This document shows, piece after piece, positions 20,858 to 62,847 of a stretch of DNA of 64,000 nucleotides. Made by a program: the position numbers and the translations under genes. A model generated the notes under the pieces. It had not been told where the DNA came from, ran no database searches, and worked only from the letters and a program-made list of their open reading frames with translations. Position 1 is the stretch's first letter; each line of letters begins with the position of its first letter. Source of the stretch: a virus; the IMG/VR virus record IMGVR_UViG_3300045538_000426, positions 1 to 64,000 of that record. One strand, 5' to 3'.

Positions 20858-21628
20858 GTGGAATCTCCATGTAATACGACAAAAGTCTATCTTAGGCAAA
20901 TCAATAAGAGTATCGCCAAGGATATAATAGTAAAAAATCACTACAGCCACAAATGGACATTGTGTCAGGTAGCTTATGGAGTGTTTTTTAGGACTGATTC
21001 ACCGAACGATTTTTTTGACGAAAGTGAAGATAAATTAATTGGATGCCTCATTTACGGTCAACCGGTTGGTAGGAGTGCAGCTGCTTCTCTGTCGGATCTA
21101 TTGAAAATAGATGAAGTCTTTGAACTCACCCGTCTTTTCATTTTTGATGGATATGGTAGAAACATCGAGAGTTACTCCATAGCACAGTCATTCAAACTTT
21201 TAAATCGGGATTTTCCACGAATAAAAGCAGTATTGAGTTACGCGGATGGTGAACAAGGACATAACGGTGTGATATATCAAGCCACTGGTTTTCATTATCA
21301 AGGGAATTCCTCACTTGCTCTCATGCCTAACTTTAGTCTAAGTCTCGTCGGACCCCCAAATTACGAGTGGATGCACAGTCGGTCAGTTACGTCTAGGTGG
21401 AAAAGTTGCAACGTAGACCATCTGAAAAGATGTATAGGAAAAACCTTTTATAGAAAGAAAGAATCTACCAAACATAGGTATATAATCTTCATCGGAAGTC
21501 GAGTGGAGAAGAAAAAACTCCTAAAATCCCTAAAACATCCCGTTCTTCCATATCCAAAGTCGTCTCATCACGTCGATGAAATCGAGGAGATAATTGTTTC
21601 CACCACTAAATCGTCTGAGTTTTTTTAA
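20858..21628 (+). CDS. Mom-like GNAT-fold adenine-modification protein
   Basis: IVKNHYSH, LIGCLIYGQP, FELTRL, VLSYADGEQGHNGVIYQATGFHYQG match the Mom family as recalled; C-terminus KSSEFF. Confidence 0.8.
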   Translation: MESPCNTTKVYLRQINKSIAKDIIVKNHYSHKWTLCQVAYGVFFRTDSPNDFFDESEDKLIGCLIYGQPVGRSAAASLSDLLKIDEVFELTRLFIFDGYGRNIESYSIAQSFKLLNRDFPRIKAVLSYADGEQGHNGVIYQATGFHYQGNSSLALMPNFSLSLVGPPNYEWMHSRSVTSRWKSCNVDHLKRCIGKTFYRKKESTKHRYIIFIGSRVEKKKLLKSLKHPVLPYPKSSHHVDEIEEIIVSTTKSSEFF

Positions 21629-27525: not shown

Positions 27526-28710
27526 ATGAGTTCACCTAGCGATTTTTTTGATGTAGTGGAGTTTGATTACGATCTTGAGAAAAAGAAATTCATAGACAAT
27601 CTCAATTTCTTAAAAAACATGGATGTTCACGAACAGACATTCTATAAGAAGTGGTATGAATTACAATCTTATAATTCACTAATTTCAAATTCTACGTTGA
27701 CGAAGGCCAGTGTATGGAACGCATCTGATATTTTGGACGAAAAATCTACCATATCCGAGATTGAGGCTATGAATCCCACCATCGAACTTGTAAAAACAAA
27801 AGCTGATGAAAATCACTGGCTCATGCTTAGGTTGTTTTGTCACACGATGGAATTCAGTCAGACGCCCGGTAGATTTCTGAAATTTCTGATACACGACGGT
27901 TCGCCTGAGAAAAAGTATCTAGGTGGTATATCTGTGTCCAGTGATGTTATAGCTATAACCGACAGAGACAATTACATCGGATGGTCTTCTGAAAATCGAC
28001 TTAAGGGAAACAAAAGAATAAATAACAGTTCGATAGGTAGTTGTATAATGTCGACGCAACCGTTTGGTTATAATTTCTTAGGTGGTAAGTTGGGTGCGTG
28101 TCTTGTGACTACGGATGTTGTTCGTGAAACGTGGAAATCACAATATGACGCGGTGTTAGCCGGGATGACCACGACAAGTTTATACGGCAGTTTCAGTATG
28201 TATAATAGTCTAAAATGGTGGTATAAATGTGGGACTAGTGCTGGAAAAATCTCGATAAAGCCAGATGATTCTGTTTACGAAATTTGGCATCATTGGATTC
28301 AGAAGAACAAGCCAGCGGAATATGCAAAAATGATGACGCAGAAAGAGGGTGTATCAGGACCTGTCACAGGAGCAAAACAAAGAGTAATATCAACGGTGTT
28401 TAGTCAACTTGGAATAAAAGCGTCCGATTACGTTCACGGATTCCAACGTGGAACGTATTACAGCTCATTTTATGAAAATACTAGGGATTTTCTATGTGAC
28501 AAGATAACGGAAAATGAACTGGTTATGAAACCACTGTTCGCCGGCGACAAGAATTTGATTTTGGAATGGTGGAGGCCTCGTGCGATTGAGCGGTATAAGA
28601 AACTCCGTTCCGAGGGGAAGTTAAAAAGTGACGTTCTTTATTACAATGACATGATTGGAATGGAATACAACGAAGCAAAGGAGAGATATTTAAATGAAGT
28701 TGGAAGATAG
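27526..28710 (+). CDS. DUF4338/DruA-like GNAT-fold protein
   Basis: TPGRFLKFLI...YLGGISVSSDVIAITDRDNYIGW...STQPFGYNFLGGKL...TTTSLYG..SMYN; N-terminus SDFFD. Confidence 0.7.
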   Translation: MSSPSDFFDVVEFDYDLEKKKFIDNLNFLKNMDVHEQTFYKKWYELQSYNSLISNSTLTKASVWNASDILDEKSTISEIEAMNPTIELVKTKADENHWLMLRLFCHTMEFSQTPGRFLKFLIHDGSPEKKYLGGISVSSDVIAITDRDNYIGWSSENRLKGNKRINNSSIGSCIMSTQPFGYNFLGGKLGACLVTTDVVRETWKSQYDAVLAGMTTTSLYGSFSMYNSLKWWYKCGTSAGKISIKPDDSVYEIWHHWIQKNKPAEYAKMMTQKEGVSGPVTGAKQRVISTVFSQLGIKASDYVHGFQRGTYYSSFYENTRDFLCDKITENELVMKPLFAGDKNLILEWWRPRAIERYKKLRSEGKLKSDVLYYNDMIGMEYNEAKERYLNEVGR

Positions 28711-29098
28711 AAAATTAATCCAAATTGGAGAGGTCGGTAATGAATTTACGAGGTTCATTTCGTCAGCTGGGTTATCTATGGCCACCGGATACAATAGAAT
28801 CGTGTTCGGTGCTAGGGGACCATATATAGAATTCGATCCATCTCATATCATACATACAAACATCCATATACCCGAGAACCAATTGTTTAGGATAAGCGAC
28901 CCACGTATTTACTATATAGAATTTCGTAGTTGTGACGTGGCTGCTGTTAAGGTGTATTATCAGATGAGAACAGTCGCTTATGCTGACTATAAGATAGGAA
29001 TGTTCTACATATCTCCATTGGAACTACAATTAATGGGTGGAGAAAATGTTCTGAAACTTACCTCTGAAAACGAAAAGAGTAGAGAATTTTTTGAATAA
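28694..29098 (+). CDS. hypothetical protein with C-terminal KSREFFE motif
   Basis: RIVFGARGPYIEF...KVYYQMRTVAYADYKIGMFYISP; overlaps the end of the DUF4338 gene. Confidence 0.75.
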   Translation: MKLEDRKLIQIGEVGNEFTRFISSAGLSMATGYNRIVFGARGPYIEFDPSHIIHTNIHIPENQLFRISDPRIYYIEFRSCDVAAVKVYYQMRTVAYADYKIGMFYISPLELQLMGGENVLKLTSENEKSREFFE

Positions 29099-29102
29099 AT
29101 TT

Positions 29103-29957
29103 ATGAAAACCATTGATCTACAACCTAAAGAAATTGTTCCGATTATGGATCAGTTGAAACAACATAGTAAAGACGGTCTTGTGTTGTGTTTTGTCGGTGT
29201 CGGCAGCGCGTGGAGCAAGAGGAATGTCAATACAAGTTTAATTGTTGCAAAAAATGGGATAACAATCTTAGTTGATATCGGAAGAAACATCCCAGAGGAG
29301 TTAGCTAAGATGGGTGTGGATATGCTTGATTTTGACTACTACCATTTTACACACAGCCATTGTGACCACGTCGGCGGCGCGGAACAACTACTACTCCAGC
29401 TTCGTTATATCAAAAAGAAAAAGGCCAAGGTAATCATAACCAATGAATACCAACAGGTTCTTTGGAACGAAACCCTAAAGGGAGGGTGTGAGATAAATGA
29501 GGACGGTTTGCTTCGGTTTACTGATTTTGTTGAAGTCATTAGGCCGGATTGGATGGCCGGTCAACCTCGTGAAAAATATCACATCAAATTAGACGGTGTC
29601 TTGGAATTTGATATTTTTAGAACCTTTCATGTTCCTGGAAATGTAAATAGTTGGGAGAAGGCATTCTGGTCAACTGGTCTTATTTTGGATAAAAAAGCAA
29701 TATTCACCGCTGACACCAGGTTCGATCTTTCTATATTCGAACATCTTGAATTTGACGGAGTGGAGGCAATATATCACGATTGTCAGTTATCCGGCCCAGG
29801 TTCAGTTCACGCTACATACGAGGAACTCACTCGTCTCATGCCGTCATATAAAGAGAGGATGTTTCTCACTCATTACGGAGACAATTTCGAAAAATTCGAC
29901 CCACAGTCAGATGGCTTCCGTGGGTTTGCAAAGCCGTGGGTGGTATATAAATTCTAA
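29103..29957 (+). CDS. apyc1: Apyc1-like metallo-beta-lactamase-fold cyclic nucleotide phosphodiesterase (anti-Pycsar candidate)
   Basis: GVGSAWSKR, THSHCDHVGG, LWNETLKGG, TADTRFD, HDCQL...VHATYEEL and FLTHYGDN parallel the Apyc1 motifs as recalled (GTGSAFSKK, THTHADHIGG, LWNDSLKGG, HDCQL..GVHAS..EL, FLMHYGDN). Confidence 0.75.
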   Translation: MKTIDLQPKEIVPIMDQLKQHSKDGLVLCFVGVGSAWSKRNVNTSLIVAKNGITILVDIGRNIPEELAKMGVDMLDFDYYHFTHSHCDHVGGAEQLLLQLRYIKKKKAKVIITNEYQQVLWNETLKGGCEINEDGLLRFTDFVEVIRPDWMAGQPREKYHIKLDGVLEFDIFRTFHVPGNVNSWEKAFWSTGLILDKKAIFTADTRFDLSIFEHLEFDGVEAIYHDCQLSGPGSVHATYEELTRLMPSYKERMFLTHYGDNFEKFDPQSDGFRGFAKPWVVYKF

Positions 29958-29985: not shown

Positions 29986-30013
29986 TTGACTGTTGTACGA
30001 TAGGTGGTAGTAT
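29986..30013 (+). promoter_or_regulatory. sigma70-type promoter with extended -10
   Basis: TTGACT (29986-29991), 16 nt spacer, TG-g-TAGTAT (30008-30013). Confidence 0.7.
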
Positions 30014-30075
30014 TTAATTACAAATTCGGATTGACTCTGTTGTTAATCTGAAAACAAAACAAAAAACAAAATAGT

Positions 30076-30282
30076 ATGATAACCCGAAAAAACAAGAAAA
30101 ACCGCACAGCGTTTGTATATGACAACCGTGGCAATTTCGAAGCATTTTTGTCCCAGACTTTCACTGGTGCAAAGCAAGCGAGTCGATTGACTCTTAGGAC
30201 TCCTACCCATAGAGTCGACCTCACCGGCGCTGATTTGAGAGTCCTCCGTCGAGTGCTAAATCGAGCGGCTAAGTTGGTCTAA
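30076..30282 (+). CDS. small basic hypothetical protein
   Basis: 68 aa, Arg/Lys-rich, first gene after the promoter. Confidence 0.65.
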   Translation: MITRKNKKNRTAFVYDNRGNFEAFLSQTFTGAKQASRLTLRTPTHRVDLTGADLRVLRRVLNRAAKLV

Positions 30283-30293
30283 TCTACCGGAAG

Positions 30294-30734
30294 TTGAAAC
30301 TGTTGATTTCAATTTTAGTTGGGTTGGTATGTTGGTTTCCTAAATGTATTCCGTTAGTCGCAGGACTGGCGGTTTACTTCATTTTGCGCCAGAAGTCTCG
30401 GATGGAAACTAATCTCTTAAATCAAGATGAGAACAATGTTAGATTTAGGTCTGACATTGACACTATCGCAACTAATCAATCAAAGTTAAACGACTCTTTA
30501 CGGACAGTCTCAGCGAAATCACACGATTCTAATGTCCGGCTCAAAGAAGATATAAGTTGTTTGAGAAACGAACTCCGTGTGTTAGAGTCTTCGTTGAAAC
30601 GAGTTAACTCAGATACCAATCATGGCACGACCAAAGAAGACATCCTCGGAAGACAGCGGCGATTCCTCAAAAGTATTGAAGGCAAAAACCCTGTTCGACC
30701 ACATCAATCAGATAAGAAACGTCAAATCACCTGA
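30294..30734 (+). CDS. putative membrane-anchored coiled-coil protein
   Basis: TTG start, hydrophobic N-terminus, coiled-coil; the 3' end overlaps the next gene by 113 nt, so boundaries are uncertain. Confidence 0.4.
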   Translation: MKLLISILVGLVCWFPKCIPLVAGLAVYFILRQKSRMETNLLNQDENNVRFRSDIDTIATNQSKLNDSLRTVSAKSHDSNVRLKEDISCLRNELRVLESSLKRVNSDTNHGTTKEDILGRQRRFLKSIEGKNPVRPHQSDKKRQIT

Positions 30735-31119
30735 TTATTTTGAGAAGTTAACCGACGGTGATAAAAAGAGTTTCAATCACTACATGATATGTAGGTTCTT
30801 GAGTATGGATCCTTCTTGTATATATGAAGCGTCGTACTTGAGTAAGGTATTTGATAAGATGGATAGCAAGTCGTTTTACAAAGTCTGTTGTGCGATTATT
30901 CCAAATGCTAGATATACACCGTATATAAAGAGTTCTCGTAAGAAGATAAATTCTGAATTGGTGGGATATATTGTTTCTAGGTTCAATGTAGGTAGTCATG
31001 AAGCGGAAGACTATTACAGAGTCTTGATTAACTTACCGACTGGATTAGAAACACTCGGGGAGATATGTAAGGGATATGGTAAGACGGATAAGGAGATAGA
31101 TAAAATTTTAAATGAATAA
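30622..31119 (+). CDS. clamp loader small subunit (T4 gp62-like)
   Basis: TLFDHINQI...KSFNHYMICRFLSM...YTPYIK...SHEAEDY pattern; clamp and gp44-like genes are present at 61-63 kb. Confidence 0.7.
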   Translation: MARPKKTSSEDSGDSSKVLKAKTLFDHINQIRNVKSPDYFEKLTDGDKKSFNHYMICRFLSMDPSCIYEASYLSKVFDKMDSKSFYKVCCAIIPNARYTPYIKSSRKKINSELVGYIVSRFNVGSHEAEDYYRVLINLPTGLETLGEICKGYGKTDKEIDKILNE

Positions 31120-31729
31120 CCGTAATAAATACATCGGAGTGTCGGGAGTAGCGAGGGTCGGGAAGAACCTCTTCTGTGATATTGCTAGTGACATATTGAG
31201 AGAAGAATACAACCTGACTTCGGAAACCTTTGCGTTAGCCACTTATTTAAAACGTGACGGTGAAATATTTTTGAGAGAAAAGTTGGGATTGAATGTTTGG
31301 TCGGAAGTAACCGAAGAAAAGTCTATATTTCGACCTTTCCTGATATGGTACGGTGGCGTCAAACGGAATCGTTCAAAGGGTAGGTGTTGGATAAACATGT
31401 TAGATCCGGAGATTCGTGCCAGTAAAGCTGATGTATGTTTCGTAAGCGATGTTCGGTTTGCTACATATGCCGACGACGAAGCACATTGGATTCAAACGGA
31501 ACTGTCGGGAAAACTAATCCACTTGTCTCGGTATAAATTTAACTCCGATGGTCAGTTCGAAGTAACCCCGCCGGCGTCGGACGATGAGGAAAGAAACGAC
31601 CCGATGTTGAATCGAATATCAGATGCATCATTGCAATGGAAGGATTCCGGCTGCAAAACACATGAAGATGCCAGAAAAAACCTAATTCTCAGAGAGAATG
31701 TCCGTCAGATATTATACAAGGTGATGTGA
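31112..31729 (+). CDS. deoxynucleoside monophosphate kinase-like P-loop protein
   Basis: IGVSGVARVGKN Walker A, FALATYLK, RPFLIWYG, FVSDVRF. Confidence 0.75.
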   Translation: MNNRNKYIGVSGVARVGKNLFCDIASDILREEYNLTSETFALATYLKRDGEIFLREKLGLNVWSEVTEEKSIFRPFLIWYGGVKRNRSKGRCWINMLDPEIRASKADVCFVSDVRFATYADDEAHWIQTELSGKLIHLSRYKFNSDGQFEVTPPASDDEERNDPMLNRISDASLQWKDSGCKTHEDARKNLILRENVRQILYKVM

Positions 31730-32490
31730 AGGATAATTTATACAATAACGGTGATGTGTTTTTTGACATAGAGAAGTCTAAATTACAAATCCAACTTATA
31801 CAGTGCACGACACCCGTGCAAAATAAGCTATTTCGTGATACCATAGATAAACATCATTCTTATGTAAAATATAAGGATTCTCCCACTCGGAATATACGGT
31901 ATCTAGTTTACGAGGGAGTGAGCGGGAACCACATAGGAGCAGTCGGCCTCAGCAGTGCTACAATTGCTGTCGCTTGTAGAGATGCTTTCATGGGGTGGGA
32001 TAATGAAACAAAGATGCTCCATCTCAACAAACTGGCAAACAACAGTCGGTTTTGTTTGATACGTGATAACATAACGGTGAGAAATGCTGCCAGTATGTGT
32101 CTAAAACAACTCCGTATAGAAGGCGCTCTTGATTGGAAGAAGAGATACGGCGACGAGTTAATTTTATTAGAGACATTTGTTCAACCTGACCGTGACGAGG
32201 AATTGGATGGTCAGAAAAGCAGAAATGGGTGTTGTTATAGAAGCGACAATTGGATTCCGGTGGGAATGACCTCCGGTGCAAGCATACAAAAATCCCCACT
32301 CCTTCTATGGGCTAAGGAAAAAGGAGAACGAGGTCGACTTGCGAGAGAGGATAAGGCCGAGTGTCTGAGAATCTACGGAAAGTATTTGGGAGAACACAAT
32401 GGAAGTGGATATAAAGTCACTGAGAGTAAGAAAAAAATTGTGTTTGTTAAACCATTGGTTCATAATTGGAAAACCATAATATCAAAATGA
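31726..32490 (+). CDS. DUF4338/DruA-like GNAT-fold protein
   Basis: IDKHHSYV...RNIRYLV...IGAVGLSS...RDAFMGW...LANNSRFCL...DWKKRYG..LILLETFV...GCCYRSDNW..VG.TSG; N-terminal VFFD. Confidence 0.8.
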   Translation: MKDNLYNNGDVFFDIEKSKLQIQLIQCTTPVQNKLFRDTIDKHHSYVKYKDSPTRNIRYLVYEGVSGNHIGAVGLSSATIAVACRDAFMGWDNETKMLHLNKLANNSRFCLIRDNITVRNAASMCLKQLRIEGALDWKKRYGDELILLETFVQPDRDEELDGQKSRNGCCYRSDNWIPVGMTSGASIQKSPLLLWAKEKGERGRLAREDKAECLRIYGKYLGEHNGSGYKVTESKKKIVFVKPLVHNWKTIISK

Positions 32491-33815
32491 ATGAATTTTT
32501 CGAATACGCTTCGCCTGAAATAGAATGTAAGTATAGAATACTTGTTTGGCCAAACATAACCTATTCGGAGGATTTGGAAAAGGATTCATATGTCGTCGTG
32601 TTATCTAATGTGATACGGGAGGTAAATAAAATCGTTCCGGGTGTATTCTGGACGATTGTTACACCGAAGGAAGTCAACAGTCTCAAGTTTCAAAATACTG
32701 AACAGATTATTTACGACTTTCCAACGTATCCAAATTCCATGAGAATCCACTTCGATTTCCGAAAGGTAATGAATCTCATAGATTGGAAAAGAAACGACTA
32801 TGATATAGTTTACAGTCATTTACCGGAACATACTCTCCAGTTATCGAACCTGTTCAATAACCAAACCAATATACGTCCGAAGTTCATAGGATATTGTCAT
32901 TGGTATGAAGTCGAGGAAAATACCGCTTATCTCAAGAATGTATTTATGAACAATATCGCCGGAACACTTGAGATGCAAGAGTGTGGGGTGAATTCTAAAT
33001 GGCTTAAATCTTTGGTATTAGAGAGGGCTGCCAAGTATTACTCAAAAAATGTCTTGGAAGATTTGGAGAAGATAATACAACCTCATTATCTTGGGACAGA
33101 TGCTGACGTGGGAGATAACACAAACATCGTCCAGAAGTCTATTTTATTTAATCACAGACCCAATCAGTATACAGGTTGGAACGAATTCCTATCGACTATG
33201 GACAACCTGTATAAAGTAAGACAGGATTTCACTGTATATGTCACGTTGGCTGAAGAGGAACGACCATATATAAAGAAGGTGTGTCTCGATAGGAAGGGAT
33301 ATTCTAACTTTCTGAAACAGATGCAAGTCGGCGTCGGATTCTTTAAAAGTTACAGTGCGTGGTCAATTTCCGCCACGGACGGTATGAGCCGCGGGCTCCC
33401 GTATTTGTTGCCAAAGAAGTTGTGCTATCCCGAAATGGTCGGTGACGATTATCCTCTATTTTTTAGCAATACAGACCAGTTTTTAATAAAGTTGGAGAAA
33501 GCACTTGATAACCCGGATTTCAGAAAAGACAATTCCGAGAGTTTATTGAAAGTGGTAAATAATTTGACGTGGGAAAATACCGTTCCAAAGTGGTTCAACA
33601 AGTGGAATGTATTTGAATTCGACAAATTAACAAAAGACACCCCGCGGTATAACGATATATTGGAATTGATAAAAACTAAGGGTACTGTTTCCAAGGAAAC
33701 TCTCATGGACTTTTTGGGGTGGGGAGTCAATATTTCCATGTCACCTTATAGAAATAGACTTAGGGATGAAACGGGAATTACATTCTTGAAAAATACCTAC
33801 CAATATAAGAATTGA
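32487..33815 (+). CDS. GT-B glycosyltransferase with C-terminal winged helix (candidate DNA glycosyltransferase)
   Basis: ATG at 32487 overlaps the upstream TGA; DIVYSHLPE, LFNHR, WSISATDGMSRGLPYL GT-B motifs; tail RYNDILELIKTKGTVSKETLMDFLGW...SPYRNRLR; starts MNEFFE. Confidence 0.75.
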   Translation: MNEFFEYASPEIECKYRILVWPNITYSEDLEKDSYVVVLSNVIREVNKIVPGVFWTIVTPKEVNSLKFQNTEQIIYDFPTYPNSMRIHFDFRKVMNLIDWKRNDYDIVYSHLPEHTLQLSNLFNNQTNIRPKFIGYCHWYEVEENTAYLKNVFMNNIAGTLEMQECGVNSKWLKSLVLERAAKYYSKNVLEDLEKIIQPHYLGTDADVGDNTNIVQKSILFNHRPNQYTGWNEFLSTMDNLYKVRQDFTVYVTLAEEERPYIKKVCLDRKGYSNFLKQMQVGVGFFKSYSAWSISATDGMSRGLPYLLPKKLCYPEMVGDDYPLFFSNTDQFLIKLEKALDNPDFRKDNSESLLKVVNNLTWENTVPKWFNKWNVFEFDKLTKDTPRYNDILELIKTKGTVSKETLMDFLGWGVNISMSPYRNRLRDETGITFLKNTYQYKN

Positions 33816-33816
33816 G

Positions 33817-33843
33817 TTCTAATGTTTTCTAATTTTTTCTAAT
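33817..33843 (+). repeat. three TTCTAAT direct repeats at exact 10-bp period (candidate operator)
   Basis: TTCTAAT at 33817, 33827 and 33837, just before a TATGTATG box (33854-33861) and an RHH gene. Confidence 0.6.
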
Positions 33844-33865
33844 ATCGTTCTCATATGTATGGGAA

Positions 33866-34045
33866 ATGGTTGATGAAAAAGATAACACCTCGATCCAAAT
33901 CTCGGTAAGAATACGTGATTTGCTTCGGGATTTTTGCGATGAACGCGGATTCAAAATGAGCCGGTTTGTCGAAATCGCTATCCTACAATCAATCTCAGGA
34001 AGTTATTCAGTACAAAATTATGAAAATGACAAAAGCACAAGCTGA
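33866..34045 (+). CDS. ribbon-helix-helix (Arc/MetJ-type) protein, absent from the ORF track
   Basis: 59 aa MVDEKDNTSIQISVRIRDLLRDFCDERGFKMSRFVEIAILQSI...; TSIQIS strand followed by two helices joined by G. Confidence 0.7.
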   Translation: MVDEKDNTSIQISVRIRDLLRDFCDERGFKMSRFVEIAILQSISGSYSVQNYENDKSTS

Positions 34046-34208
34046 AGCAAAGGTCTACACCCTCACCGAATCTCTATTAGCAACGAAGCGAGACCAGAAG
34101 GATGTAAATGCGGGATATAAGGAAAAAATCAAGGATGTGGAATCTGAGATAAAGGCGATTATAGAAGACTACAATTCCGCCGGTTCCGTGCCTGCTACGA
34201 CGGTCTAA
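34020..34208 (+). CDS. small coiled-coil hypothetical protein
   Basis: MKMTKAQAEAKVY...GYKEKIKDVESEIKAII; ATG at 34020 preferred. Confidence 0.6.
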   Translation: MKMTKAQAEAKVYTLTESLLATKRDQKDVNAGYKEKIKDVESEIKAIIEDYNSAGSVPATTV

Positions 34209-34229
34209 TCAAACCTACGAACAAGTTGT

Positions 34230-34772
34230 ATGGAAAAGAAAAAGATATTGTTGGCAAGTGATGATCTTAGGATGTTCAGTGGAGTTGCCTGTCAGTCAAG
34301 GGAACTTGTCATAAATACACTACATCATTACGACTGGGTTCAGATCGCGGGCTCAATTAAACATCCGGAGGCAGGAAAGGTGGTTGATATGTGTCAAGCC
34401 GCCAGAGAACAATCGGGCGTGAAAGATGCTTATCTAAAGTTGTATCCGGCAGATGGTTACGGTAACGAAGATATGCTGCTTTCTATCATGGATATTGAGA
34501 AGCCGGATGCAATTATGCATTTTACCGACCCTCGTTTTTGGGGATGGTTGTATCAAATCGAAAGAAAGATCCGACAAACCATTCCGCTTACGTATCTCAA
34601 TATTTGGGATGATATTCCATATCCAATGTGGAATCGTCCGTTTTATGAGAGCTGTGATGCTCTTTTTAGTATCAGCAAACAGACGATGAACATTAACAAG
34701 TGGGTTCTCGGTCCGGAAAATTGCACGAGTGTCGGTGGAGATTATGACAGCGACGGTAATGTTATCATATGA
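34230..34772 (+). CDS. GT-B glycosyltransferase, N-terminal half of a split gene
   Basis: KILLASDDLRMFSGVA...EKPDAIMHFTDPRFW...YLNIWDD..YP..N...YESCDAL..ISKQ; ends before the last strand of the N-terminal domain. Confidence 0.8.
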   Translation: MEKKKILLASDDLRMFSGVACQSRELVINTLHHYDWVQIAGSIKHPEAGKVVDMCQAAREQSGVKDAYLKLYPADGYGNEDMLLSIMDIEKPDAIMHFTDPRFWGWLYQIERKIRQTIPLTYLNIWDDIPYPMWNRPFYESCDALFSISKQTMNINKWVLGPENCTSVGGDYDSDGNVII

Positions 34773-34841: not shown

Positions 34842-35831
34842 ATGCCAGTAAAAGGAAAACACCTACTTCACTACGTCCCACATGGGATCAACTCCACTGT
34901 ATTTAAACCAGTCGACGCTACGTCGCCCGAACTCGTCAAGTTTCGTAAGAACTTATTTAAAAACGGAGAATATGATTTCGTATTCTTCTATAACAGCCGC
35001 AACATCAATCGCAAGCGGACAGCGAACATCATGTTGGCGTTTCGAACATTCTGTGATAATTTGCCCAAAGAGAAGTCATCCAAGTGCATTCTCGTTCTTC
35101 ACACTGAGAAAATCCTCGACGCTGGAACGGATTTGAACGCAGTTGGAGAAGCGTTTCTACAGGGACTTAACTATCTTGTATTGGAGAGTAGATATTCTCC
35201 GGAAGAAATGAATCTTCTTTACAATCTATCCGATGTTACGGTCAATGTGAGTTCAAACGAGGGATTTGGATTGAGCGTCGCTGAATCAATCGTATCAGGA
35301 ACCCCCGTCATTGTAAATGTTACTGGTGGATTACAAGACCAGATAGGCCAGTTGGATGACGATGGAAAGCCGGTGGAATTTTCACGAGATTTTGGTTCAA
35401 ACAATGTTAAAAAATATACGAAACATGGTATCTGGGCTAAGCCGGTTTGGCCCGTGACTCGCGTCATTCAAGGTTCACCGCCGACTCCTTATATATTCGA
35501 CGATTTGTGTAAGTGGGAAGATGTAGCCGAGGCTATGATGTATTGGTATGTTCTCGGTAAAGAAAAGTGTGAATCGTGTGGAGCCGAGGGTCGCAGGTGG
35601 GCTCTAAATGAGGGCGGGTTGAATCATAAGAATCTCGCCGAACAGTTCATAAAGGCTATGGATTTCACCTTGGAGAACTTCACTCCACGGTCTAGGTTCA
35701 GCCTCCACGGAGACACTGAATATGTTGGGAATAGGATGCCGCAAAACAGTATGGGGTTTGATATTCCAAAGATAGATGTGGAAAAAATGAGGAGTGAAAT
35801 AGTTCACGTCAATCAAACAAACTCTCTATAA
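34842..35831 (+). CDS. GT-B glycosyltransferase, C-terminal half of a split gene
   Basis: LLHYVPHGIN, FFYNSRNINRK, SSNEGFGLSVAESIVSGTPVIVNVTGGLQDQ (GT4 EGFG..E motif). Confidence 0.85.
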   Translation: MPVKGKHLLHYVPHGINSTVFKPVDATSPELVKFRKNLFKNGEYDFVFFYNSRNINRKRTANIMLAFRTFCDNLPKEKSSKCILVLHTEKILDAGTDLNAVGEAFLQGLNYLVLESRYSPEEMNLLYNLSDVTVNVSSNEGFGLSVAESIVSGTPVIVNVTGGLQDQIGQLDDDGKPVEFSRDFGSNNVKKYTKHGIWAKPVWPVTRVIQGSPPTPYIFDDLCKWEDVAEAMMYWYVLGKEKCESCGAEGRRWALNEGGLNHKNLAEQFIKAMDFTLENFTPRSRFSLHGDTEYVGNRMPQNSMGFDIPKIDVEKMRSEIVHVNQTNSL

Positions 35832-56682: not shown

Positions 56683-59211
56683 ATGTATCAAAACATTTTC
56701 GTAGATAAAAAGAGTGAGACGGTTTTCATATGGGATGATAAATTGGGTCTTATTCAAATTCCAGTCGACCAAGCAACTTACGCCTATCGTAGGTGTTCCG
56801 GCGGACGTTACCGTTCTCTATACGGCGATGAATTGGAAAAGATTTCTAAGTTTTCTCCACGGGATCCATCTCTATTTGAATCCGATGTCCCATTAACCAC
56901 TCGTGTTTTAATAGATGCATATGAGGATTCAGATGAACCATCAACCGGCCACACGACGCTTTTCTTGGATATAGAAATAGATGTCACCGACGGATTCTCT
57001 ACACCGGAGGATGCTGGAAACGAGATAACGGCTATTGCTATATATGACGACATCACGGCGAAATATACGGCGATGATTCTTGATAAACAGATGCGGGTTA
57101 CCGACTCCCAAAAAGACGGTGTCTCTGTTCTTCGATTCGACAATGAAGAGTCGCTTCTCTCTCATTTTTTGACAAAGATAGAGGAAATCAGACCAACGAT
57201 AATAACCGGTTGGAACGTGGCTCAATATGATATGCCATATCTGTTCAACCGAATTACTACTGTTTTGGGGCGGAGAAGTGCTCAACGGTTATCTCCCATT
57301 AATATCGCTTATGTAAACCCCCGTGAAGGAGAAGTTGTTCTCGCTGGCGTGTCGGTTCTCGATTATTTGATTCTATATAAGAAATTCATCGGTAGAAATG
57401 AATCGAATTACACACTCGGTGCCATTGGAAAACGAGTGGTTAAGATGGAAAAGATAAGTTACAGTGGAAATTTACAAGACTTGTTCAATTCCGATATTAA
57501 TCGTTACATTGAATACAACCTAAACGACGTTCAGATAGTGGTTGCGTTGGATAAGAAGTTGAAATTTATAGATTTGGCTAGAAACGTGTGTCATACGGGA
57601 CATGTTCCATATGAATATTTCGGTATGTCAAGTCGTTATATCGAAGGTGCGATGTTACTTTATTTGAGAAGGACCGGATTGGTCGCTACGAATAAGTCAT
57701 TGGAGGGACAGGCCGACTTTGCAAGACGAACTGAGGAGTCGGAAGAAGGGTTTGAAGGAGCATACGTCAAGGATCCTGTTCCGGGAAGATATGATTGGGT
57801 ATATGACTTGGATTTAACTTCCATGTATCCGAATATCATGATTAGTCTCAACATCAGCCCGGAGACGGTCATTTCCAAAGTAGAAGATTGGAATGTAGAA
57901 CGGTATTTGAAAGGTGACTACAAATCTGTGAAAATGGGTGGGTCTGAATACGACATTGTTGATTTCAAGAAAATGATGGATGAGAAAAAGTTCTCTATCG
58001 CTTCAAATGGTGTAATTTATAGAAACGATAAGCCGGGATTGATACCGGCCATCCTTATAAAATGGTTCGATGAACGAAAATCCCTCCGTAAGCTCGCTAA
58101 GAAATATGCGGAGGACGGTGATATGGAGAAACATGAATTTTACGACAACCGACAACGTGTTCAGAAAATTCTACTTAACAGTGCATACGGTGTGTTGGGA
58201 CTTGAGGTATTTCGTTTTTACAACAAAGATAACGCGGCAGCAGTAACACTTACGGGTCAGGATATAATCAAGACCACAAACAAAGCCATCAATCTATATT
58301 ACAAAAACATATTGAACGTAGACAATGATTATGTGGTGTATGTCGACACCGATTCCGTATTCGCTTCAGCCGTTCCAATCATTGAACATTCTATGCCGGA
58401 GGTAGATTTGAAAGACGATGTTCAGATGACCGCTGCTATTCTGAAAGTTGCTGGTGAAGTTCAATTATTCGTCAACAAGTTTTATGATGTGATGGCTAAG
58501 AAGTTCTTTAATATAAGCACTCATCGGTTTGATATCAAACAAGAGGTTATTTCAAAGACAAGTTTTTGGTTGGCGAAGAAACGATACTGTCAGTTGATTA
58601 TAAACAAGGGAGGTCTTCCCGTGGACGAACTTGAAGTTAAGGGGTTTGACGTCGTTCGGACAAGTTTCCCCCTCGTGTTCAGAAAGTTCATGAATACGTT
58701 TCTGATGGGTCTGCTTAATAAGGTAGAACAACGCGTGATAGATGATACCATCGTAAAGTTTCTGGAAGAGATAAACACGTTGTCTATTTTGGATATGGCA
58801 AAAAGCACATCCGTAAAGTTCGTGAGTCTTGATAAAACAAAGAACTATGACCCCACATCACGGATTCCGTTTAACACGGTATTGGGAACGCCCGCTCAAG
58901 TCAAAGCCGCGTTGATGTATAATGATTTGATTGATAAATGGGGATTGGAAAAACATACTCAAAAGATATTCAATGGTCAAAAAATCAAATGGGTGTATTT
59001 GAAACAGAATGAATACGGAATCGATGCTCTCGCGTTTAAGGCTGACGGAAATGATTCGAAAGAGATATTGAGTTTTATAGATACCTACATAGACAGATCA
59101 GCGATGTACGACCAAGAACTGAAGACCAAACTCCAGGACTTTTACGCTGTATTGAAGTGGCAGTATCCAAGTTTGGAGAGCCGTAAAGCAGAAGAGTTTT
59201 TTAGTTTTTGA
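56683..59211 (+). CDS. polB: family B DNA polymerase (T4 gp43-like) with 3'-5' exonuclease
   Basis: Exo motifs FLDIEID, GWNVAQYDMPY, YNLNDV; polymerase motifs DLTSMYPNI, KILLNSAYG, YVDTDS, KKRY; tail RKAEEFFSF. Confidence 0.96.
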   Translation: MYQNIFVDKKSETVFIWDDKLGLIQIPVDQATYAYRRCSGGRYRSLYGDELEKISKFSPRDPSLFESDVPLTTRVLIDAYEDSDEPSTGHTTLFLDIEIDVTDGFSTPEDAGNEITAIAIYDDITAKYTAMILDKQMRVTDSQKDGVSVLRFDNEESLLSHFLTKIEEIRPTIITGWNVAQYDMPYLFNRITTVLGRRSAQRLSPINIAYVNPREGEVVLAGVSVLDYLILYKKFIGRNESNYTLGAIGKRVVKMEKISYSGNLQDLFNSDINRYIEYNLNDVQIVVALDKKLKFIDLARNVCHTGHVPYEYFGMSSRYIEGAMLLYLRRTGLVATNKSLEGQADFARRTEESEEGFEGAYVKDPVPGRYDWVYDLDLTSMYPNIMISLNISPETVISKVEDWNVERYLKGDYKSVKMGGSEYDIVDFKKMMDEKKFSIASNGVIYRNDKPGLIPAILIKWFDERKSLRKLAKKYAEDGDMEKHEFYDNRQRVQKILLNSAYGVLGLEVFRFYNKDNAAAVTLTGQDIIKTTNKAINLYYKNILNVDNDYVVYVDTDSVFASAVPIIEHSMPEVDLKDDVQMTAAILKVAGEVQLFVNKFYDVMAKKFFNISTHRFDIKQEVISKTSFWLAKKRYCQLIINKGGLPVDELEVKGFDVVRTSFPLVFRKFMNTFLMGLLNKVEQRVIDDTIVKFLEEINTLSILDMAKSTSVKFVSLDKTKNYDPTSRIPFNTVLGTPAQVKAALMYNDLIDKWGLEKHTQKIFNGQKIKWVYLKQNEYGIDALAFKADGNDSKEILSFIDTYIDRSAMYDQELKTKLQDFYAVLKWQYPSLESRKAEEFFSF

Positions 59212-59881: not shown

Positions 59882-60083
59882 CTTGCTGCATGCGTGTTTG
59901 CCACCTGATAGGGATGAAATTTATAGGTTATTAGATCTGTTTGAAAACGCCAAATACACGGAAAATTATATTGTTTCGTCGGTGATGAAACATTTTAGAG
60001 GAAGATGTAACCCTGTATTAGTGAGGGAGATTGTGTCGGAATATCTTGCTGCCCGCCCACGGCAGAAAATAAGAATAGTATGA
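59871..60083 (+). CDS. small protein resembling the GatB/YqeY C-terminal tail
   Basis: YIVSSVMKHFRGRCNPVLVREIVSEYL compared with the GatB pattern FFVGQVMK.TKGKANP..V.E.L. Confidence 0.5.
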   Translation: MKSDLLHACLPPDRDEIYRLLDLFENAKYTENYIVSSVMKHFRGRCNPVLVREIVSEYLAARPRQKIRIV

Positions 60084-60955
60084 ATTACAGAAAATTACTT
60101 CCGTTTCACGATGACGTTAAAGTCATGACGCAGTTTGGCATGCTTCCTCTTTCCGTGATGGAGTTTTCCAATGATGATAAATGGGACATGGCTTATTTTA
60201 AACAAGACGATTCCGAAAAGCGAAGAAGCGACGATTGTGAGTATCTTTCCGGATTGGGGATGAGCGAGTTTAGCAGTGCTATCTGTGAATTTATTGTAAA
60301 GTATTGGAGTTTGGAGAATGCCAACGTCGTTGACCCGTTCGCCGGGCGTTCAACTAGAGCCATAATAAGTTCAAAGTTGGGTAGGAATTACCAAGGTTAC
60401 GAAATTTCACCACACACTTTCAATCGTAGTTTGGAACAATACAAAGTCGCGGGGGTAAATCCATTGCTTCATTTGTCAGATGGTCGGTATATGTTAGAAA
60501 CCGAAAATGACTTCGCCCACCTCGTCATGACGTGTCCTCCGTATGGATCGATCGAAAAGTATGAGAGTGTCCCGGGACAATTAAGCGACATTAGAAAATA
60601 CGACGAGTTTCTCTCTAACATAAGTGTTTGTATATCCAATATATACAGAGTTTTAAAGCCAGGAGGGTTCTGTTGTTGGGTGGTAGCTGATTGGAGAGAT
60701 GGTCATGGATACCATCAGTTCAGTAACGACAGCATTCAATTGTTTAAAATGAACGGATTGATACCTCACGACACGGTTATTATAAAGAACAATTCTCCAT
60801 TTGCCGCACTTCAAGCGGGCAAGGCAGCTGCTAAACGGATAACCTCAAAGACACATGAATATCTATTGGTCTTCCGCAAGGAAGGTGAGCTGAATATAGA
60901 CGGATTAAAACTAACGGAAATAAACAAATCGGCAAATGCTTTTTTTGAATTATGA
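60080..60955 (+). CDS. DNA amino-methyltransferase-like protein (N4mC/N6mA fold)
   Basis: VVDPFAGRST (motif I), LVMTCPPY (motif IV variant), VLKPGGFCCWVVADWR, HEYLLVFRK; tail KSANAFFEL. Confidence 0.85.
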   Translation: MNYRKLLPFHDDVKVMTQFGMLPLSVMEFSNDDKWDMAYFKQDDSEKRRSDDCEYLSGLGMSEFSSAICEFIVKYWSLENANVVDPFAGRSTRAIISSKLGRNYQGYEISPHTFNRSLEQYKVAGVNPLLHLSDGRYMLETENDFAHLVMTCPPYGSIEKYESVPGQLSDIRKYDEFLSNISVCISNIYRVLKPGGFCCWVVADWRDGHGYHQFSNDSIQLFKMNGLIPHDTVIIKNNSPFAALQAGKAAAKRITSKTHEYLLVFRKEGELNIDGLKLTEINKSANAFFEL

Positions 60956-61128: not shown

Positions 61129-61872
61129 ATGAAAAAACAAACTGTAGAGACATTCATCAAGAAGTATTCACTTAACGGACTCGTTGACTCTGTCAAGTGG
61201 ACCGTTGATTCCGATAAAAAGACACTTACCACCAACGCTATCACGGAGGAAAAGAACGTCTTGATTGCTGTGGAGATTGCTAATTTCGACGCGATTGATG
61301 AGAAGTGTGAATTAGGAGTCTTCGAGACATCTCGTCTATCTAAGATGTTATCGGTTCTCTCCGATACGGTTACACTTTCTCTCAATAAGAAGGACGATAA
61401 GATTACTTCTGTTGGACTTTCTGACGACAATGACACCGTAGCACAATTCATCACATCCGACCTCGCGGTTATCCCATCCGCTCCGGCGTTGAAGAAACTC
61501 CCTGACTTCGGTGTGGAGATACTCTTGGACACCGACTTTGTCTCACGTTTCGTAAAAGCGAAGAATGCTCTTCCCGAAGTAGATACGTTTACTTTACTGA
61601 TGAACAAGAAGTCTAAGTTGGAGATGGTCTTAGGTCATTCCACTTTAAATAGCAATCGTATCACGTTGGGTGTAGATGCGGTCGATGGTAAGGACGTGGT
61701 CAAGAAAAGCGTTAGCTTTAATGCTAAGTATTTCAAGGAAATCTTAGTGGCCAACAGCGACTGCCCATCTGCCGTGTTGAGAGTAAGTGATGCGGGTTTG
61801 TCAACGGTGGAATTCATAAATTCCGATTTCAAGTCGACTTATTACATGGTCGAGGTTAAGATGGTTGACTAA
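61129..61872 (+). CDS. DNA polymerase sliding clamp (T4 gp45-like)
   Basis: 247 aa two-domain beta-rich protein (FVKAKNAL, FNAKYFKEIL, YYMVEV) directly upstream of the clamp loader. Confidence 0.8.
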   Translation: MKKQTVETFIKKYSLNGLVDSVKWTVDSDKKTLTTNAITEEKNVLIAVEIANFDAIDEKCELGVFETSRLSKMLSVLSDTVTLSLNKKDDKITSVGLSDDNDTVAQFITSDLAVIPSAPALKKLPDFGVEILLDTDFVSRFVKAKNALPEVDTFTLLMNKKSKLEMVLGHSTLNSNRITLGVDAVDGKDVVKKSVSFNAKYFKEILVANSDCPSAVLRVSDAGLSTVEFINSDFKSTYYMVEVKMVD

Positions 61873-61890: not shown

Positions 61891-62847
61891 ATGAATTTTT
61901 CGTTTGAGGAAGAGGTTCCCAAATCTACGGTTGTAAATTCTCTATGGGTAGAGAAATACCGACCCGATAAATTGGATGGGTATATAGGAAATGACCAACT
62001 TAAACAGACGGTTTCATCCTTTATTACGCGAAATGACATACCACATCTACTGTTTTATGGAACGGCTGGCACAGGAAAGACGACTCTCGCTAAGTTGATA
62101 ACTAAGAACGTCGAATGTGATGTCCTTTATATTAACGCGAGTGATGAAAACTCCGTTGACACGGTCAGATCGAAGATTAAGGGGTTCGCTTCGACTACAG
62201 GATTTACATCGTTAAAGGTGATTATTCTGGATGAGTCAGACTTTTTGTCTCAGGAAGCTCAGGCGGCTCTACGAAATCTGATGGAGACATTCAGTCTCAC
62301 TACTCGGTTTATATTGACATGTAACTATCAGGAAAAGATTATCCCCGCGTTAATCTCCCGTTGTCAGACGTATCAAATAAATCCAATTAGTAAGAAAGAG
62401 GTGGCGATTCACCTCAAATCAATCTTCGAGAAGGAATCGGTCAAATTCTCGATGGAAGACTTGGGATATATAGTGAACACGTATTATCCCGATATCCGTA
62501 AGATATTGAATTTCTCCCAACAAAGTGTGTTGGACGGAACTATCAAAATCAATACTTACGATGCCGTAGGAACTGATTTGAAGAATAAGATAATAAGTTC
62601 ACTGTCAAATTCGAATAACATATCCACTACGTTCAACGAAATACGTCAGATAGTTGCTGATAATGACATTCGTTCGTTCGACGAGTATTATTCATTACTC
62701 TACGAAAGATGTTCGGATTACTCCAAGGGAAAGGATGTTCCTGTAATTATTACAATCGCTGAATACGTTCATCAAAGTAGTTTGGTGGTCGATAAGGAGA
62801 TTACATTCATGGCGTGTATCGCAGCGGTTCTAAAGTCAATAAAATGA
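61891..62847 (+). CDS. clamp loader ATPase subunit (gp44/RFC-small-like)
   Basis: LWVEKYRP, LLFYGTAGTGKTT, INASDE, IILDESD, AQAALRNLME, FILTCNY, SRC. Confidence 0.95.
   Translation: MNFSFEEEVPKSTVVNSLWVEKYRPDKLDGYIGNDQLKQTVSSFITRNDIPHLLFYGTAGTGKTTLAKLITKNVECDVLYINASDENSVDTVRSKIKGFASTTGFTSLKVIILDESDFLSQEAQAALRNLMETFSLTTRFILTCNYQEKIIPALISRCQTYQINPISKKEVAIHLKSIFEKESVKFSMEDLGYIVNTYYPDIRKILNFSQQSVLDGTIKINTYDAVGTDLKNKIISSLSNSNNISTTFNEIRQIVADNDIRSFDEYYSLLYERCSDYSKGKDVPVIITIAEYVHQSSLVVDKEITFMACIAAVLKSIK

Follow-up and report, generated by a model that had tools for sequence, protein, structure and literature searches.

In phage Mu, the GNAT enzyme Mom modifies adenine at N6 in double-stranded DNA with the help of Gly-tRNA, and it works alone, without a glycosyltransferase (GT). 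T4 alpha-glucosyltransferase (alpha-GT) is a GT-B enzyme of a T4-like phage that acts on phage DNA and, according to PMC13216743, co-purifies with the gp45 sliding clamp, whose binding motif LDFLF is placed by PMC6212786 at the extreme C-terminus of gp43 and also in a ligase loop. GT-B members that resemble MshA, BshA and 7qsg-type GT4 enzymes are described for the 5-hydroxymethylcytosine (5hmC) and 5-hydroxycytosine (5hoC) clusters of Pyle et al. 2023 (MT/5mYOX-GT; bioRxiv 10.1101/2023.12.21.572611) and Lee et al. 2026 (PMC13326640), the latter comprising the arabinosyl/hexosyl-5hoC clusters of RB69, DLP3 and RL38J1. Here we compare with these systems a GT gene (32487..33815) of the virus record IMGVR_UViG_3300045538_000426 from IMG/VR (122,969 bp; CheckV completeness 41%), the first 64 kb of which form the window, that is, the whole stretch of DNA that was analysed for this gene.

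We propose that this GT is a replication-coupled DNA glycosyltransferase acting on the phage's own DNA, a reading drawn from sequence comparison to which we assign a probability of roughly one half. Because the protein combines a basic tail with an end-peptide that is common to the phage's family-B DNA polymerase (PolB), decoration of DNA by the GT is probable. The protein would consist of three parts: an acidic-FF peptide on a flexible linker, a two-Rossmann nucleotide-sugar core and a basic tail of about 60 residues. The end-peptide would dock the GT on the replisome of the phage, with the sliding clamp as the most likely site, in the way proposed for the C-terminal peptide of PolB; the basic tail would grip duplex DNA, and the core would move a sugar onto newly made phage DNA. 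A linked DruA/DUF4338 GNAT with the same end-peptide would cooperate, perhaps by readying the acceptor or by modifying it further. We infer clamp binding, DNA binding and DNA as the acceptor, as well as whatever is said here of the donor sugar and the acceptor base, from the family and locus comparisons below.

Compared with T4 alpha-GT, which associates with the gp45 clamp, the present GT carries a terminal peptide that is predicted to serve a similar end, being PolB-like; however, PF11440 is absent from the Pfam matches of the query and of 55 family members, no tblastn match was found in 50,697 phage records, and the present enzyme belongs to a GT4-like branch with an extra basic tail and a GNAT partner, while no 5-hydroxymethylcytosine (hmC) pathway was found in the 41%-complete record. 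With the 5hoC clusters the locus has in common a nucleotide kinase gene, which adjoins the GT in RB69, DLP3 and RL38J1 and here is a deoxynucleoside-monophosphate-kinase-like (dNMP-kinase-like) gene in the GT cassette. In contrast, the hallmark of the 5hmC/5hoC clusters given there, a ThyA homologue (N177D and L143D/E or D169N) or a TET-type dioxygenase, was not found here, and neither Pyle et al. nor Lee et al. mention, in the text searched, a helix-turn-helix (HTH) tail or a GNAT partner. Of the GT4 enzymes MshA, BshA, PimA and the 7qsg mannosyltransferase, which give the best profile matches, the GT keeps the Arg/Lys and Glu positions of the donor half, but it scores below every Pfam threshold, has HLPEH and GYCHWYE motifs of its own, and adds the tail, the end-peptide and a phage replication context. 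A literature search, which took in the main text of the Pyle and Lee papers, found no description of a GT tailed in this way or of a GT paired with DruA. The parts of the GT, with approximate domain boundaries, are as follows.

32487..33815, + strand: glycosyltransferase gene; ATG at 32487, stop codon at 33813-33815, 442 amino acids (aa).
32487..32507, + strand: N-terminal acidic-FF peptide MNEFFEY, conserved in phage relatives, followed by a variable linker up to the first strand of the core.
32535..33041, + strand: predicted N-terminal GT-B half, about residues 17-185, with DS, HLPEH and GYCHWYE motifs; D33, S34, D106, P113, E114, Y136, H138 and W139 are near-invariant in the family alignment.
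33042..33608, + strand: C-terminal, donor-binding GT-B half (residues ~186-374), which contains the motifs FNHR and YPE, delimited by the family profile against PDB 7qsg.
33639..33812, + strand: basic C-terminal domain, winged-helix-like, residues ~385-442, delimited by conservation, charge and weak matches of hidden Markov models (HMMs) and hhalign.

On its own, the GT protein matched nothing in Pfam, PHROGs, NCBIfam, PADLOC or PDB sequences, so its GT4 membership rests on the profile of its family. That family is large: of 4565 candidates screened, 1466 metagenomic proteins are homologous at E<=1e-3; among the 120 homologues listed, all but two incomplete entries have lengths of 441-455 aa and span 92-100% of the query, and clustering at 50% identity leaves 384 clusters, 55 of them at E<=1e-30. 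We built the family profile from 55 mostly full-length members, hand-picked among 270 listed, with identities down to 22%. Residues 186-374 of this profile matched PDB entries 7qsg (E 1.4e-6), 5i45 (3.4e-4) and 3qhp (5.8e-3), and its residues 1-185 were covered by no PDB match. When the 55 members were scanned singly against Pfam, Glycos_transf_1 (PF00534) was found in 22, Glyco_trans_1_2 in 12 and Glyco_trans_1_4 in seven, with N-domain matches to Glyco_transf_4 in four and to Glyco_trans_4_2 and QTMAN_N (E 0.011) in one each. H223 and R224 of the FNHR motif and E316 of the YPE motif are near-invariant, the YPE segment aligns to the PE of the GT4 motif in 7qsg, and the ESM Atlas neighbours of the GT are viral Glycos_transf_1 clusters. 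Since both the profile and the single-member matches agree, assignment of the protein to a phage GT4-type family with a predicted GT-B fold is supported at family level, in keeping with the GT-B core claimed by the original prediction, a reading of the window's sequence made before any database search.

The tail can be aligned in all 55 members, down to 22% overall identity, with W412, Y421 and R422 near-invariant. Across the 31 of these tails that entered the tail alignment, from which near-duplicates and very long extensions were left out, the net charge has a median of +6 (range -2 to +14). Searched in all six frames with a tail HMM, the 122,969-bp record yielded this open reading frame (ORF) only (E 1e-24; the runner-up, a 59-aa frame, scored 0.028), and thus no other GT of the record has the tail, as had been predicted for the GTs here. 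Pfam searches on the 31 tails returned HTH_24 in two (best E 8.6e-5) and HTH_45 in one (3.2e-5), along with TFIIE_beta, DUF7343 and DDRGK in one each. Aligned by hhalign with 19 bacterial HTH_24-containing domains, the tail scored 17.9 (P 0.0037) over 29 columns in which helices 1-2 are in register, whereas none of 60 controls with shuffled columns scored more than 10.3; ESM Atlas leads for the tail are weak (0.77-0.80), and some of them are winged helix-turn-helix (wHTH) families. A crude profile of amphipathicity and propensity shows two clear amphipathic helices, interrupted by a break at Gly and a brief strand of hydrophobic residues, and continues with a Gly-rich turn, an unusually long link, a YRNRLR segment and an alternating C-terminal stretch. 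The tail is compatible with a winged-helix fold. The helix-strand-helix-helix-hairpin pattern originally proposed has thus survived in part: the conserved, basic domain of about 60 aa is there, with a crude profile compatible with that order of elements, and the assignment as a winged helix is left with weak HMM and hhalign matches.

We next consider the other end of the protein, where the start MNEFFEY resembles the end of the same phage's PolB (...KAEEFFSF). Two sets of viral loci, which belong to one broad phage group, were used for this and the following comparisons: set 1 comprises 80 loci with close relatives of the GT (45-97% identity; 393 of 436 pattern matches confirmed), and set 2 comprises 80 loci of a second GT clade (33-38% identity; 517 of 573 confirmed). 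Residues M1 and F4 are invariant in 15 close homologues, and in related loci the GTs begin with MNLFD/EL, MNIFDF, MSKFFD and similar peptides followed by a variable linker, while the PolB proteins end in ..EDFFG, ..DEFFSF or ..KFFEF. The pattern [LIFMY]F[DENTQS] occurs at the N-terminus of 31/55 and 39/47 distinct GT leaders, compared with 92/897 and 20/584 background ORF N-termini, which makes the N-terminal EFFE motif of the original prediction a real and conserved one. Only distinct termini were counted and ORFs touching a locus edge were skipped, as were, for the GT leaders, ORFs without the core motif; since ORFs were called from the first ATG, GTG or TTG, some GT N-termini were missed.

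Over the whole record, the motif stands at 8 of the 306 termini of 153 non-overlapping ORFs (9 if the GT is read from its ATG), where 1.56 would be expected from interior 9-mers. Besides PolB, the carriers are a Mom-family protein, a DNA methyltransferase, the long DruA-like protein, a 134-aa protein and three unknowns. An unbiased scan of neighbour families found the motif only in the DruA-like family (63% of 38 N-termini), the GT, PolB (94% of 16 distinct C-termini in set 2) and an 88-aa family (n=5), with 0-9% in all other families listed. An N-terminal FF is present in 35 of 39 distinct set-1 homologues of the long DruA-like protein; the short DruA paralogue has ..GDVFFDIE at residues 9-16, and an FF falls within the first 12 residues in 6/6 distinct N-termini of its homologues. 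Taken as a sequence, the GT peptide has the make-up of a clamp-binding peptide, namely a terminal hydrophobic-aromatic motif with an acidic flank, a flexible linker, and a counterpart at the C-terminus of the cognate PolB; in its placement and residues it is similar to the T4 motif LDFLF. Its occurrence on this range of proteins suggests a common docking motif for a set of DNA-modifying enzymes. The carriers outside the GT cassette, the candidate clamp and the clamp loader are:

20858..21628, + strand: Mom-family GNAT (DNA adenine modifier family), C-terminus ...SSEFF; PF25680 E 5.9e-43.
56683..59211, + strand: family-B DNA polymerase ending ...KAEEFFSF; Pfam DNA_pol_B.
60080..60955, + strand: DNA methyltransferase ending ...NAFFEL; PDB 2zie modification methylase E 1.3e-16, plus N4-cytosine methyltransferases.
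61129..61872, + strand: candidate divergent sliding clamp, 247 aa, in the T4 gene 45 position between PolB and clamp loader; found by hhalign against the clamp of HTVC008M.
61891..62847, + strand: clamp-loader large subunit (RFC/gp44-like); PDB RFC5 E 8.2e-45, T4 gp44 E 1.5e-23.
63519-64154 (window), G000 104224-104529 (-) and G000 117622-119115 (-): the three unknown carriers.

The product of 61129-61872 is a candidate for a very divergent gp45-type sliding clamp: in a hhalign comparison, its alignment of seven homologues matched the annotated clamp of Pelagibacter phage HTVC008M with P 0.0014 over 111 collinear columns, at a probability of 17%. The virus is an uncultured marine jumbo phage and, judged by its genes, a distant T4-like one, whose family-B polymerase is 43.6% identical to that of Microcystis phage Mel-JY01 and ~28% identical to those of cyanomyophages, and whose further genes include UvsX, DnaB, RNR and the RFC/gp44-like clamp loader.

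The start of the GT is tied to a DruA/DUF4338-like gene, as its ATG overlaps the TGA of that upstream gene in the sequence ATGA. DUF4338 is called a GNAT domain in PMC10853773. The genes upstream of the GT, from the long DruA-like gene onwards, are:

27526..28710, + strand: full-length DruA/DUF4338-like gene, the conserved GT partner, 394 aa, N-terminus MSSPSDFFD; PF14236 E 3.8e-26, 92.4 bits; PADLOC DruA 2.2e-19.
28694..29098, + strand: 134-aa protein ending ...SREFFE, an end motif present in 4/5 distinct homologue C-termini.
29091-29957: hydrolase of the metallo-beta-lactamase (MBL) fold; RNase Z-like matches are weak (6.4e-9, far under cut-off).
30622..31119, + strand: gp62-like, possibly the small subunit of the clamp loader; two genes upstream of the GT cassette; PF16790 Phage_clamp_A E 3.3e-4, under the curated cut-off.
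31112..31729, + strand: dNMP-kinase-like P-loop gene, whose end overlaps the GTG start of the next gene by 4 nt; phrog_139 E 1.6e-7.
31726..32490, + strand: short DruA/DUF4338-like gene, translationally coupled to the GT, N-terminal ...GDVFFDIE; PF14236 E 1.8e-22, 80.3 bits; PADLOC DruA 4.8e-5.

Both DruA-like genes score above the PF14236 cut-off of 27 bits. Linkage of such a gene to the GT is widespread: in 55 of the 80 set-1 loci, and in 32 of the 33 with an upstream flank of at least 5 kb, a homologue of the 394-aa DruA-like protein precedes the GT in the same orientation, being directly adjacent to it or overlapping it in a few; in set 2 one is found in 55/80 loci and in 29/32 where the flank is at least 3.6 kb. 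The gene order around the pair varies. In the window it runs MBL, clamp-loader-like, dNMP kinase, short DruA paralogue, GT and glycan island, while the majority order is DruA-like, GT, HD phosphohydrolase, small genes, and gp25 with wedge baseplate genes, and that of the second clade is PolB, DruA-like, optionally a cytidylyltransferase-like gene and a 411-aa unknown, GT, UvsX and DnaB. Because the pairing persists through these rearranged orders, it looks functional, beyond what inherited gene order alone would give, as far as sequence comparison can tell.

For the role of the DruA-like partner, Mom would be the model, and this phage's own Mom-family gene has the same end-peptide; however, the relation between DruA-like and Mom families is marginal by hhalign (score 23.2, P 0.029, null maximum 20.9). 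The DruA-like profile used (16 sequences: the window's own protein and 15 of 18 listed ORFs) found nothing in PDB at E<=10. A more specific form of the proposal, in which the DruA GNAT and the GT make up a replisome-tethered, two-enzyme pathway to a new class of hypermodified DNA whose starting base is neither a hydroxymethyl- nor a hydroxy-pyrimidine, seems to us rather unlikely; there, the Mom-like GNAT would add an acyl or aminoacyl group to a base of duplex DNA, and the GT, held by clamp and DNA, would put a sugar on that group.

Several other genes recur around the pair. At L166 6213-6605 and in 12 other set-2 loci, the interval from the DruA-like gene to the GT holds the cytidylyltransferase-like gene (130 aa, PF01467 E 1.8e-16), and the 411-aa protein, which has no Pfam match, occupies the same interval in 19 loci; this may supply a donor-activation step. 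An HD-domain phosphohydrolase (phrog_28876, 8.7e-11) follows directly 3' of the GT, before the baseplate genes, at L064 11306-12070 and in 56 other set-1 loci. At each of two set-1 loci, L045 and L057, two or three paralogues of the Mom family flank the DruA-like, GT and clamp genes, and four loci have Mom-like ORFs no more than 1.4 kb from the GT. In the window itself, the MBL-fold gene (29091-29957) is the last of the run opened by the long DruA-like gene.

Downstream of the GT stop (33815), the glycan island begins at 34230, and a scan of 30000-34400 found no terminator-like site between the two, with promoter-like matches at shuffle level. The first GT of the island is made of two in-frame ORFs, 34230-34772 and 34842-35831, of which the C-terminal part matches Glycos_transf_1 and GT4-conflict. 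Homologues of the window's island genes accompany the GT in only ~6-9 of the 80 set-1 loci, in line with the earlier separation of this GT from the downstream ones, to which glycan synthesis had been attributed: the gene is genetically separable from them.

Distant homologues of the GT (21-25% identity) were also found in eight bacterial loci, from Acidobacteriota, Methylobacterium, Planctomycetota and others. The tail is kept in 6/6 full-length bacterial copies, by a tail HMM partly built from their metagenomic kin, and the N-terminal leader is absent in 6/6 bacterial homologues, which start with the first strand of the core. Their neighbours are a CHAT protease (3/3 tested), a metallophosphoesterase and a conserved 226-aa protein with an AGLGGRATEG motif, which may resemble SLOG/LOG motifs; the protein was considered as a DruA-like protein and rejected, as hhalign against a DruA alignment of every third of 91 ORFs gave a probability of 0.1%. 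These clusters lie at L168 7998-13372 and likewise in L169-L174. PADLOC returned as its sole match on the bacterial cluster a marginal BovA (E 0.0026), on the CHAT protein. From its gene content, the cluster may be an undescribed conflict system, and a context of this kind looks to say little on the acceptor of the GT. The distant single proteins P0204 and P0222, used as queries, retrieved no viral loci.

A number of results weigh against a replication-coupled DNA glycosyltransferase. In the 41%-complete record, no known enzyme was found that would make a handle for glycosylation, whether hmC, 5-hydroxycytosine (hoC) or 5-hydroxymethyluracil (hmU), and the search for Tet/JBP and for a C5-methyltransferase was negative. 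The only ThyA homologue of the record lies 57 kb from the GT and scores as a thymidylate synthase; aligned to E. coli numbering, it keeps Leu143, Asp169 and Asn177. These residues are the methylating, dUMP-using signature according to PMC13326640. One related contig of 165 kb, 79% complete, has no ThyA homologue at all. The GT found no similar protein in a tblastn search of 50,697 GenBank phage records, and hence none among the known DNA GTs. For the putative winged helix of the tail, the hhalign match to HTH_24 has a probability of just 8.9% and covers helices 1-2 alone, the link from helix 2 to helix 3 is unusually long, and the best PDB sequences, eL31 (E 0.055) and S25 (0.17), are below significance. 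For the peptide, the terminal enrichment of P = 2e-4 or 3.5e-5 concerns a motif that was defined after being seen, the set-2 DruA-like N-termini carry it in 0/30, the Pfam gp45 models have no match in the record, and the candidate clamp has none in PDB. Finally, cultured pelagimyophages and cyanomyophages have a DruA-like gene without this GT, and the bacterial GTs do not stand among DNA-metabolism genes. The DNA target named in the original prediction is plausible and has gained support from evidence outside that prediction, namely the DruA/GNAT partner, the placement among replication genes and the end-peptide common to PolB, Mom and the methyltransferase.

The ThyA homologue itself is of an unusual form. 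It is encoded at G000 90562-91725 (-), scores 270 bits with TIGR03284 (cut-off 108) and is 394 aa long, including an insertion that we put at ~130 aa relative to the usual ThyA length. Three of four large related contigs encode homologues extended in the same way (378-403 aa), one of them at locus L082 1498-2682 (-).

The least unlikely alternative is that the GT is an ordinary transferase of the glycan island, making a virion-protein or cell-surface glycan, with a tail for protein contact or membrane association. Its position directly upstream of ~20 kb of GT and nucleotide-sugar genes would fit, as would the sugars, lipids and small molecules that GT4 enzymes usually take as acceptors and the MshA-like, capsule and WlaC enzymes that are its nearest PDB sequences. 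However, most relatives place the GT amid DruA-like, HD phosphohydrolase and baseplate genes or in a PolB-UvsX-DnaB block; homologues of the island genes, rare in set 1 as counted above, do not figure in the 22 most frequent neighbour families of set 2; and a basic tail together with an N-terminal peptide common to PolB, Mom and a DNA methyltransferase points away from glycan synthesis. We also consider it improbable that the GT acts on RNA, for example on a modified tRNA base like the GT4 enzyme QTMAN on queuosine, or on a nucleotide or small molecule, with the GNAT completing the pathway. The pairing of a GT4 enzyme with a GNAT is known from mycothiol synthesis, and a cytidylyltransferase-like gene between the DruA-like gene and the GT in 13 set-2 loci would suit such a pathway; the QTMAN_N match in 1/55 members and the resemblance of the tail to the RNA-binding ribosomal proteins eL31 and S25 point the same way, but both fall under significance, and the end-peptide held in common with PolB and DNA-modifying enzymes, with the placement among replication genes, favours DNA.

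The evidence from peptide and context applies equally to a GT that is tethered to the replisome and glycosylates a protein there, be it the clamp, the single-stranded DNA-binding protein (SSB), the polymerase or a host factor, the tail merely steering it to DNA. The absence of a recognisable pathway to a DNA handle would fit a non-DNA acceptor of this kind; nevertheless, the other carriers of the peptide, Mom and the methyltransferase, are DNA-modifying enzymes, and we know of no precedent in phages for a glycosyltransferase of replisome proteins, so that we regard this as quite improbable. Very improbable, in our view, is a tail that is a winged helix of the transcription-factor type in a moonlighting regulator, which would autoregulate the cassette while the acceptor is not a nucleic acid: the HTH_24 and HTH_45 matches do stem from regulator families, but the tail is kept in every lineage whatever the neighbours, bacteria included, and the N-terminal peptide would be left unexplained.

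If the GT is indeed a replication-coupled DNA glycosyltransferase, a very abundant marine phage gene family, which counts over 1400 homologues after clustering at 90% and, in IMG/VR, 393 + 517 matches over two scans, would mark an undescribed DNA decoration. Such a system would join a GT4 enzyme with a DNA-binding-type domain to replisome docking like that of T4 alpha-GT, with a DruA GNAT in place of a hydroxymethylase, and would widen the DNA-modification chemistry known to counter restriction. The common terminal peptide suggests a 'tool-belt' of DNA-modifying enzymes on the phage clamp. On the main reading, part of the resistance of marine viral DNA to sequencing and restriction would be explained as well. 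The pairing would also offer a handle on DruA function, and the two-enzyme hypermodification, if correct, would assign to the DruA proteins of the Druantia defence system their first biochemical function.

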